A stretch of DNA of 516 nucleotides, taken from assembly GCF_003334815.1 (NCBI RefSeq), contig NZ_QOWO01000129.1. One strand, written 5' to 3'. Made by a program: the position numbers and the translations under genes. Position 1 is the stretch's first letter; the number at the start of each line of letters is the position of its first letter. The notes below the pieces were generated by a model. The model was not told where the DNA came from. It saw only the letters and a list, made by a program, of their open reading frames with translations, and searched no databases. The stretch comes from Escherichia coli. Lineage in GTDB: Bacteria; Pseudomonadota; Gammaproteobacteria; Enterobacterales; Enterobacteriaceae. Of this stretch, positions 1-516 are shown piece after piece.

Positions 1-113
1 TATGCAAGATTTGCCTGAACAGCACGATTCTGCATGATGTCGATTTGTGCGATTGCGTCCTTCTGCTGATCACCGGTTGGCTGATAAGTGGTGTTAAAAG
101 AAAATGCGCTCAT
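1..113 (-). CDS. N-terminal ~37 codons of a protein-coding gene (hypothetical protein); gene continues leftward beyond position 1
   Basis: ATG at 113..111 on the minus strand, preceded by AGGAGG (118..123) with a 4-nt spacer. An in-frame stop lies upstream at 149..147, so this ATG is the first start in the frame, and the frame stays open to position 1. Translation: MSAFSFNTTYQPTGDQQKDAIAQIDIMQNRAVQANLA. I do not recognise the family. The plus-strand frame 3 is also open over 3..131 but gives a Cys-rich peptide with no start, so the minus strand is favoured. The gene is absent from the supplied ORF track, presumably because it is edge-truncated. Confidence 0.55.
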   Translation of the reverse strand, partial: MSAFSFNTTYQPTGDQQKDAIAQIDIMQNRAVQANLA

Positions 114-117
114 GTTT

Positions 118-123
118 CCTCCT
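118..123 (-). promoter_or_regulatory. Shine-Dalgarno sequence (AGGAGG) for the minus-strand CDS starting at 113
   Basis: Plus-strand CCTCCT at 118..123 is AGGAGG on the minus strand, 4 nt upstream of the ATG. The spacer is on the short side but the SD core is perfect. Confidence 0.6.
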
Positions 124-143
124 GTGTTTAATGTTTTCAGCCC

Positions 144-158
144 CCATCACCCGTTGAG
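144..158. repeat. Direct repeat copy 1: CCATCACCCGTTGAG
   Basis: Matches 220..235 (CCATCACCCGTTTGAG) apart from one extra T. The copies start 76 bp apart, in the region upstream of the minus-strand gene. Confidence 0.8.
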
Positions 159-172
159 TTTCGGGAGCCGCG

Positions 173-188
173 GTTTTGACGTTTTGCG
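173..188. repeat. Tandem octamer GTTTTGAC-GTTTTGCG
   Basis: Two adjacent 8-mers differing at one position. The second copy starts the TTTTGCGG motif that recurs at 327..334, as a variant at 503..511 and inverted at 293..300. TTGACG (176..181) resembles a -35 hexamer, but I found no convincing -10 at 16-18 bp spacing. Confidence 0.55.
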
Positions 189-219
189 GGGACCTGCCGT
201 TTGTTCCCTCCGGTATTAA

Positions 220-235
220 CCATCACCCGTTTGAG
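220..235. repeat. Direct repeat copy 2: CCATCACCCGTTTGAG
   Basis: 15/16 identity with 144..158, with a single T insertion. Candidate paired protein-binding sites; function not established. Confidence 0.8.
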
Positions 236-292
236 AACCTTCGCCGCAAGGGGCATCACTGCCACGACCGGAAACGACTGTCCGGGGGCAGA

Positions 293-334
293 CCGCAAAA
301 GTTTTTGCCTGCTTTTGGGCAAAAAGTTTTGCGG
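293..334. repeat. 42-nt imperfect palindrome / hairpin-capable inverted repeat
   Basis: Arms 293..311 and 316..334 pair as 293-300 with 327-334 (8 bp), one G/G mismatch at 301/326, 302-309 with 318-325 (8 bp), and two G-U wobbles at 310/317 and 311/316, around a CTTT loop (312..315). That is 16 Watson-Crick pairs. No U-tract follows on either strand, so it does not look like an intrinsic terminator; an operator-type dyad or RNA hairpin is more likely. Confidence 0.85.
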
Positions 335-339
335 GATGT
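327..339. repeat. Direct repeat TTTTGCGGGATGT (left copy; partner at 503..516)
   Basis: Near-identical to TTTTGCCGGGATGC at 503..516 with one extra C. The two copies flank the GC-rich domain. The core CGGGATGT (332..339) is also the reverse complement of ACATCCCG (489..496). Confidence 0.75.
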
Positions 340-489
340 ACATTTCACCCCTGGACTGGCGGAGACGGTTGTGGCTGTCTGTGCCCCCGGCGACAGGGAC
401 TCATACGGGTGTGTGGCACCGGACACAACAACGGGCAGGGACCCGCCGCAACGACGAAGAGCGCGTGCGCGAAACGGCGTTGCCCCTCA

Positions 490-515
490 CATCCCGGCGG
501 CCTTTTGCCGGGATG
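490..515. other. GC-rich stem-loop (9-bp stem, 8-nt loop); function undetermined
   Basis: 490-498 (CATCCCGGC) pairs perfectly with 507-515 (GCCGGGATG), with 7 of 9 pairs G-C, around loop GGCCTTTT. The window ends at 516, so a plus-strand U-tract cannot be checked. There is no U-tract on the minus-strand side (the reverse complement of 480..489 is TGAGGGGCAA). Confidence 0.7.
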
Positions 516-516
516 C
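503..516. repeat. Direct repeat TTTTGCCGGGATGC (right copy; partner at 327..339)
   Basis: See 327..339. This copy also forms the 3' arm of the 490..515 stem-loop. Confidence 0.75.

Follow-up and report, generated by a model that had tools for sequence, protein, structure and literature searches.

In the 516-nt stretch of Escherichia coli DNA analyzed here (the window), a minus-strand gene starts at position 113, and the roughly 400 nt upstream of its start codon lack a convincing gene yet are dense in repeats and dyads. The question raised by this locus is what so large an apparently intergenic region does. The original prediction had allowed for a complex regulatory region, a long structured 5' leader whose promoter would lie beyond position 516, or an embedded non-coding element, and had named a conserved small protein or a degraded pseudogene as findings that would speak against it. 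Feature coordinates are collected in Table 1. The best-matching plasmid record is referred to as L001 and the record of the F plasmid as L003.

Table 1. Features located in the window, with strand and the basis on which each was placed.
Feature	Position	Strand	Basis
98-aa leading-region gene, 5' end (37 codons)	1..113	-	CDS annotated at L001 8817-9113
Start codon ATG of the 98-aa gene	111-113 (complement)	-	Agrees with annotated CDS
Shine-Dalgarno AGGAGG of the 98-aa gene, 4 nt ahead of ATG	118..123	-	Direct sequence reading
Repeated module of ~620 bp, promoter-proximal two thirds in window	133..516	+	F alignment, paralogue coordinates
Long imperfect T-strand hairpin, Frpo/ssiD homologue	140..478	+	Fold, homology, covariation, RNAalifold
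Alternative geometry on 5' arm: TTGAGA 231-236, 17 nt, CATCAC 254-259	231..259	+	Candidate assignment
Predicted start (template positions), opposite 388-390	244..246	+	7-8 nt downstream of 381 via pairing map
3-nt bulge CAA, conserved, adjoining the predicted start	247-249	+	
Mismatch patch, CATCACT facing 376-382	254-260/376-382	+	All folded homologues
Perfect helix GTCCGGGGG/CCCCTGGAC	280-288/348-356	+	Common to all folded homologues
A/T-rich apical stem-loop, arms 293-309/318-334, loop 310-317	293..334	+	Inverted repeat I2, 94% complementary
Motif GTnCATnT in asymmetric unpaired 3'-arm bulge (339-347)	338..345	+	Conserved columns
Preferred -35-like hexamer TGGACT, 3' arm as non-template strand	352..357	+	Putative assignment
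Preferred '-10' TGTCTG, 18 nt past the -35, in mismatch patch	376..381	+	Putative assignment
Small GC-rich hairpin: CATCCCGGC, 8-nt loop, GCCGGGATG	490..515	+	Inverted repeat I9, 9/9 complementary

Coding potential and setting in the plasmid leading region

Open reading frames called mechanically within positions 114-516 were short, the longest being two minus-strand frames of 68 aa (137-343) and 56 aa (256-426). Coding sequences have also been placed over the long hairpin described below in RefSeq and GenBank records, under the labels 'hypothetical protein' and 'single-stranded DNA-binding protein'. While these frames and annotations would favor a small protein, the homologues argued against one. 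In 10 of 14 homologues the 68-aa frame met a stop at codon 12 or codon 28, the 56-aa frame was likewise interrupted, and in most homologues frames were stopped or shifted despite DNA identity of 80-93%. Searches of NCBIfam and Pfam with the internal ORFs produced no match, and comparison of their products with SSB revealed no similarity, although one public record carries the SSB label. With the frames broken and similarity to NCBIfam, Pfam and SSB absent, the protein reading of the internal ORFs was rejected. There is next to no chance that the region is a decayed gene or codes for a small protein, and the public CDS annotations over the hairpin are probably spurious. The original prediction of a stretch without a convincing gene therefore stands, and neither the conserved small protein nor the pseudogene remnant emerged from the homology tests.

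The 98-aa product of the minus-strand gene itself had zero matches in NCBIfam, Pfam, PHROG and PADLOC, and a variant of 70% identity was located on a Klebsiella plasmid. The gene occupies a position equivalent to that of ygeA in the F plasmid but is not homologous to it, BLASTP of the 98-aa protein against F YgeA having returned no alignment.

More than 5000 plasmid records, from Escherichia, Klebsiella, Salmonella and Shigella, matched the window, and 3932 among the 5000 best-scoring plasmid records were typed as conjugative. Matching places numbered 3 per E. coli genome at the median and up to 22 in a single genome, and a phage collection searched with the window gave no match. The comparison between strains that had been proposed as a check showed the stretch to be conserved as a unit, as part of a repeated module of about 620 bp found in these >5000 plasmids. 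In L001 this module spans 9117-9738 and reaches approximately 220 nt past the window end; homology to F starts at 133 and homology to paralogous copies at about 117. Plasmids carried 3-4 co-oriented copies. Among five plasmids, all 14 located copies were co-oriented on the T-strand, with three per IncF plasmid and two in F. The window copy is the oriT-proximal one, and a second copy directly abuts ssb.

The gene order in IncF plasmids was tra operon, traM, oriT, SLT (orf169), DUF932, the 98-aa gene and the element, followed on the far side by hok, psiA, psiB, a parB-like gene, a DUF905 gene and ssb. In this IncF context the location is the leading region, which enters the recipient ahead of all other plasmid DNA, and the element lies about 2.1 kb from a nic-like motif of L001. 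The F nic motif, GGGGTGTGGTGCTTT, was found on the minus strand of L003, which is the strand homologous to the window plus strand, and a version with two mismatches was found on the plus strand of L001 about 2 kb to the left. At F oriT, the strand bearing the nic motif is nicked and transferred 5' end first. Together, the strand of the nic motif and this knowledge of F oriT identify the window plus strand as the T-strand and as the template of the downstream genes. The T-strand thus carries the hairpin and templates the downstream minus-strand genes, with the step from nic to T-strand drawn from general knowledge of F oriT.

A conserved hairpin on the transferred strand and its identity

A repeat scan returned 16 inverted-repeat pairs, which resolved into a single hairpin spanning 140-478 with its apex loop at 310-317. 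Folded as DNA, the plus strand had a minimum free energy of -113.1 kcal/mol compared with -73.8 +/- 4.8 kcal/mol for dinucleotide shuffles (z = -8.2), and none of 100 shuffles folded as well. The dense repeat and dyad structure noted from the letters alone is therefore real and far above chance. Structural conservation was analyzed in an alignment of 15 sequences comprising IncF paralogues, F Frpo1 and Frpo2, and copies from S. boydii, Serratia and insect metagenomes, the Serratia and insect-metagenome sequences being taken from PMC11541004. Across the 15 copies, 88.6% of cells were paired under the window hairpin versus 42-49% with slid partners, a percentage somewhat favored by the fact that the reference structure came from one alignment member. 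Pairs changed on both sides numbered 17 versus 5-12 in the slid controls, and the covariation score was 0.118 versus 0.03-0.05. RNAalifold, run independently, yielded the same long hairpin. The hairpin was kept in the S. boydii copy, from which 48 nt of the apex are deleted, in insect copies with a short GC hairpin at the apex, and in a Serratia copy with a longer apex. A conserved, very stable imperfect stem-loop is thus present on a single strand. In all 15 copies the T-strand folded more stably than its complement, with a margin of 7-16 kcal/mol, and the G.T wobbles on the T-strand were invariant across the alignment. These compensatory changes and the strand asymmetry point to selection acting on folded T-strand DNA rather than on mRNA.

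The anatomy from the A/T-rich apex to the long lower stem was common to all folded homologues. The sequence of the apical stem-loop was conserved in IncF, in IncI1 ColIb-P9 ssi1-3 and in Salmonella Frpo*, and this segment (293-334) had been lost or exchanged in the copies from S. boydii and insect metagenomes. Below it, the 3'-arm bulge was seen in every folded homologue, and within its GTnCATnT motif the G, T, A, T and T columns were invariant across IncF, IncI1 and Salmonella relatives. The perfect helix and, next to it, a helix with two G.T wobbles were likewise present in all folded homologues. In IncF, Serratia and insect-metagenome copies, the lower half of the hairpin (140-236 paired with 398-478) equalled the promoter core in conservation; the IncI1 ssi elements do not share this half. 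A direct repeat, CCATCACCCGTT, is conserved within the part of the 5' arm at about 114-245. Directly 3' of the main hairpin on the T-strand, and still within the repeated module, the small GC-rich hairpin was found in all IncF copies, and the insect-metagenome copy preserved its pairing through a T-A to C-G change. It is conceivable, if rather unlikely, that the hairpin does more than serve as a single promoter, and that a further function not yet described resides in the lower stem, the CCATCACCCGTT-TGAG duplication and the small hairpin next to it. Such a function could be a timed barrier or hand-off in complementary-strand synthesis (as in ssp2), control through a leader RNA, or a second direction of initiation.

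Comparison with the characterized element of the F plasmid identified the hairpin. Window positions 141-487 were 91.7% identical over 347 nt to F ssiD (D90178, drawn from Supplementary file 4 of PMC11541004), which itself shares 98.3% identity with the F Frpo1 locus and 87% with Frpo2. Positions 133-516 aligned to F directly upstream of ygeA with 92.5% identity. As well as sequence, F Frpo1 has an equivalent position, with hok/flm on one side and the first oriT-adjacent genes on the other, an equivalent strand relative to nic, and an equivalent hairpin anatomy (A/T-rich apex, 3'-arm bulge, GTCCGGGGG/CCCCTGGAC helix, mismatch patch and CAA bulge). It differs from the window copy at several stem positions, partly with compensation, and in the downstream gene, which encodes YgeA in F and an unrelated 98-aa protein here. 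Window positions 140-478 can with high confidence be assigned as a Frpo-type (ssiD, class 1, ssp1a/Frpo1) single-stranded DNA promoter of the IncF leading region. The element is of a known kind, an orthologue of the founding member, and involves no new biological principle; its identification as a Frpo element accounts for the seemingly oversized intergenic region.

With homology to F Frpo1/ssiD and no coding frame, the embedded non-coding regulatory element among the original suggestions proved right in outline. The suggestion of a complex regulatory region was correct as to regulation and not as to action in the duplex, since by homology to F the region would work as folded, single-stranded T-strand DNA. 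A long 5' RNA leader with its promoter past position 516 does not fit, as the same homology makes the region itself the promoter.

The F element has been studied in some depth. According to the accounts of Masai & Arai (1997) given in PMC9849209 and PMC7690428, the Frpo stem-loop with its -35 and -10 boxes recruits RNA polymerase in vitro, and the F orthologue directed RNA polymerase-dependent transcription and priming in vitro. Frpo and ssiD are two names for the single-stranded DNA promoter reported by Masai & Arai (1997), which was later given the name Frpo1 and placed upstream of ygeA and ygeB by Couturier et al. 2023 (PMC9849209). Deletion of Frpo1 abolished early YgeA production in transconjugants and lowered transfer, and the leading genes downstream of Frpo1 were silent in donors (PMC9849209). 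Samuel et al. counted 13,089 Frpo homologues across 6,006 conjugative elements (PMC11541004). Frpo has been classed as a class 1 ssDNA promoter, with the starts of class 1 mapped by 5' RACE (PMC12672017), and Frpo1 has been named ssp1a, with in vivo support for priming from ssp1/Frpo transcripts (bioRxiv 10.64898/2026.01.09.698686).

From its homology to the F element, the copy in the window is predicted to be active as a ssDNA promoter. During conjugation the window plus strand would enter the recipient as single-stranded DNA, and would do so within seconds because the window lies only about 2 kb from the nick site. The incoming strand would fold into the long imperfect hairpin of approximately 340 nt, the paired stem of which would mimic a duplex promoter, presenting a -35-like helix and a pre-melted mismatch patch at promoter spacing. 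Host sigma-70 RNA polymerase could then initiate on the T-strand before a complementary strand exists and transcribe toward lower coordinates, through the 98-aa gene and then the DUF932 gene, and the same transcript could prime complementary-strand synthesis. Formation of the duplex would remove the hairpin and hence the promoter, so that expression would be limited to a transient pulse. Under this scheme the 98-aa gene is predicted to be an early, zygotically induced leading-region gene. As the downstream gene differs from F ygeA, the regulated cargo here is not the characterized one, and the module may drive an uncharacterized 98-aa early gene unrelated to ygeA. From Frpo elements, anti-SOS, anti-restriction and establishment genes are expressed on the incoming single strand before the host responds. 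Such elements also help to prime second-strand synthesis and are central to the establishment of resistance plasmids in new hosts.

Promoter geometry within the hairpin

A sigma-70 consensus scan of both strands of the duplex sequence identified no promoter, and a relaxed weight-matrix scan of 15 homologues produced weak, ambiguous candidates only. The best linear score in the window was that of a -10 TACATT in the 3'-arm bulge with TTGGGC/TGGGCA. This candidate was rejected on two grounds: F Frpo1 and Frpo2 (TGCATT, TTCATT) do not preserve the A at -11, and its '-35' would fall in the apex loop. TTGACG (176-181) was also rejected as a -35, having no -10-like partner and lying in a segment that is absent from functional IncI1 relatives.

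The upper half of the hairpin is common to the functional IncI1 elements ssi1-3 and to distant Salmonella relatives, and the promoter elements should therefore lie in this half. With moderate confidence, we favor a geometry in which the 3' arm would serve as the non-template strand, with TGGACT (352-357) as the -35, 376-381 as the '-10' and a start near template positions 244-246. At the preferred -35, which overlaps the conserved helix 280-288/348-356, CCCTGGAC was found in all homologues. The first T of TGGAC (T352) faces G284 in a G.T wobble and faces T in other copies, never A, which would make the hairpin -35 better than a duplex one. In the '-10', TGT was invariant and the following 3-4 bases varied, and the match to TATAAT was weak. 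The distance on the template arm from the -35 helix to the mismatch patch was constant among folded homologues, since a 3-nt bulge in the 3' arm of Frpo2-type copies takes up the extra bases. In class 2 sequences the -35 and -10 boxes are clear and lie on the 3' arm, and a working Frpo2-acrIIA4 construct stops at the equivalent of window position 400 (both PMC11541004). The preference for this geometry follows from the 3'-arm boxes of class 2, the end of the construct just past the putative start, the pairing of TGGAC and the constant spacing. Under it the 5' UTR would measure about 130 nt, and the apical stem-loop, lying upstream of the -35, would be a candidate UP-like element.

An alternative geometry would use TTGAGA and CATCAC of the 5' arm, in which case transcription would run over the apex. 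These two hexamers were invariant among IncF, Serratia and insect copies, and this arrangement was not conserved in ColIb-P9 ssi1-3. Among IncF copies the 5'-arm side of the patch (CATCACT) was more conserved than the 3'-arm side, which fits the alternative better than the preferred geometry. The mismatch patch (254-260/376-382) is flanked by -35-like helices 17-18 nt to either side, with weak -10 matches. Both geometries draw on this one patch, and the one with its -35 on the 3' arm is considered the somewhat more probable.

Competing explanations and relation to known elements

A structured 5' leader RNA (or a riboswitch or sRNA), transcribed from a conventional promoter beyond position 516 and acting through its RNA structure, would explain several of the same observations. 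The complement of the window also folds well (-104.8 kcal/mol, z = -7.3), the 5'-arm part at about 114-245 probably forms a transcribed leader whichever model applies, and it is within this part that the conserved direct repeat CCATCACCCGTT lies. However, the mRNA-sense strand was the less stable one in 15 of 15 copies, and the G.T wobbles of the T-strand would become A.C mismatches in RNA. An Rfam scan at E <= 10 returned only chance miRNA matches far below gathering scores. The loss of recipient expression on deletion of the F orthologue, together with silence in donors (PMC9849209), is also unexpected for an ordinary duplex promoter, and a leader RNA is accordingly considered very unlikely.

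The abundance of the element could instead suggest a dispersed mobile or recombinational repeat (MITE-like, or a cassette boundary) that has no promoter function and whose hairpin consists of terminal inverted repeats. The 3-4 copies per plasmid, the spread over >5000 plasmids and as many as 22 sites in a genome, and the abrupt end of F homology at 133, ahead of a different cargo gene, are all consistent with such a repeat, and gain or loss of leading-region modules through recombination between Frpo repeats has been proposed (PMC3817090). Against this, every copy is co-oriented with the T-strand and lies in the leading region, and the inverted repeat, graded and interrupted by conserved mismatches, is an internal one and not a pair of terminal repeats. 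The compensatory changes and the strand asymmetry again point to selection on the folded T-strand, and promoter activity has been demonstrated for the F orthologue. A repeat devoid of promoter function is thus extremely unlikely, and a role as a recombination hot spot does not exclude one as a promoter.

Assigned as a Frpo-type ssDNA promoter, the element can be placed among related systems. F Frpo2 (ssp1b), located upstream of ssb, is a paralogue that is approximately 85-88% identical and has an equivalent fold; a Frpo2-like copy also lies ahead of ssb in the window's own plasmid type (L001 14551-14908). Frpo2 differs in its upper stem, rewritten through compensatory changes, in a 3-nt bulge on the 3' arm, and in the genes under its control, which are ssb, yfjA, yfjB, psiB and psiA and not the oriT-proximal ones. 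The ssi1-3 elements of IncI1 ColIb-P9 (Bates 1999; Nasim 2004) and the class 1 elements of pESBL (Wen et al. 2025) have the upper-hairpin core in common with the window. The core common with IncI1 ssi1-3 consists of the A/T-rich apex, the GTnCATnT bulge, the CCCCTGGAC helix and the mismatch patch. While these IncI1 and pESBL class 1 ssDNA promoters have an equivalent leading-region location and role, the lower stem of IncI1 ssi1-3 is unrelated in sequence and their overall similarity falls below the 80% blastn band. The class 2 and class 3 promoters of F and pESBL (ssp2 and ssp3, the latter also known as 'Frpo3') are likewise leading-region hairpins of the T-strand that rebuild -35 and -10 elements, but are without sequence homology to Frpo, and ssp2 is in addition a replication roadblock resolved by UvrD (bioRxiv 10.64898/2026.01.09.698686).

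Extent of the repeated module and annotations across it

The repeated leading-region module was found to run approximately 220 nt beyond the window end, to L001 9517-9738 in the best-matching IncF plasmid (L001; equivalent to window 517-738), a segment which is rich in GC. When L001 9117-9738 was compared with the other copies on this plasmid, an 89% match to 14538-15153 and an 86% match to 17875-18424 were observed. A frameshifted pseudo-CDS is annotated across L001 9517-9738.

Public records also annotate coding sequences across the long hairpin, variously named 'hypothetical protein', 'single-stranded DNA-binding protein' or 'frameshifted SSB'. Since most homologues interrupt the minus-strand reading frame at this site, and the frame shows no SSB similarity, these entries appear, from sequence comparison, to be artefacts of annotation that have spread through thousands of plasmids. 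With respect to chromosomal occurrence in E. coli, 112 of the 10,676 matching places were not plasmid-borne, one of them, in strain WGI31CT, being a full-length match at 98.6%; plasmid integration or joining during assembly presumably accounts for them.

Features of the module and its surroundings (L001, best-matching IncF plasmid)
Feature	Location	Strand	Details
98-aa gene	window 1-113, part of L001 8817-9113	minus	directly downstream of promoter module
Annotated CDSs over hairpin, examples	region of window 137-343	minus	CP099088 NFK77_24020; NZ_CP074882 KIN90_RS30515, RS30465
Exact 12-nt direct repeat	window 144-155 and 220-231		CCATCACCCGTT; 5' arm, 76 nt apart
Small hairpin	window 490-515		CATCCCGGC, 8-nt loop, GCCGGGATG
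Perfect small hairpin	L001 9550-9566		GCGACCG-GAA-CGGTCGC; within module extension

Sequence variation within the hairpins

The copy on the S. boydii plasmid NZ_CP026837 (L005 3001-3311) is missing 48 nt covering the entire A/T-rich apex, and the remaining -35-like helix is just 4-5 bp, providing a natural test of whether the apex is required. At the mismatch patch (window 254-260) the 1991 ssiD entry, D90178, reads CATACT, while the F sequence NC_002483 and all IncF copies examined read CATCACT, a difference which alters the -10 resemblance of that hexamer. The two F entries differ at approximately six positions in total, and the discrepancy is probably an old sequencing error. Both copies of the direct repeat in the 5' arm are strongly conserved, with (T)TGAG coming right after each; under the preferred promoter geometry both would fall within the transcribed leader.

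The small hairpin at 490-515 is present in every IncF copy, and in an insect-metagenome copy a compensatory replacement of T-A by C-G preserves its pairing. With no T-run on either strand, it lacks the appearance of an intrinsic terminator. In the related elements of the IncI1 plasmid ColIb-P9, the equivalent position is taken by another small hairpin, different from this one.

Cargo behind the promoter module

The 98-aa protein gave zero matches to NCBIfam, Pfam, PHROGs or PADLOC, and no similarity to F YgeA was found. A 70% identical variant of the gene occupies the equivalent position on a Klebsiella plasmid. Because homology to F begins exactly at window 133, the promoter module precedes interchangeable cargo, with the position held here by the 98-aa gene being occupied in the F plasmid by ygeA.
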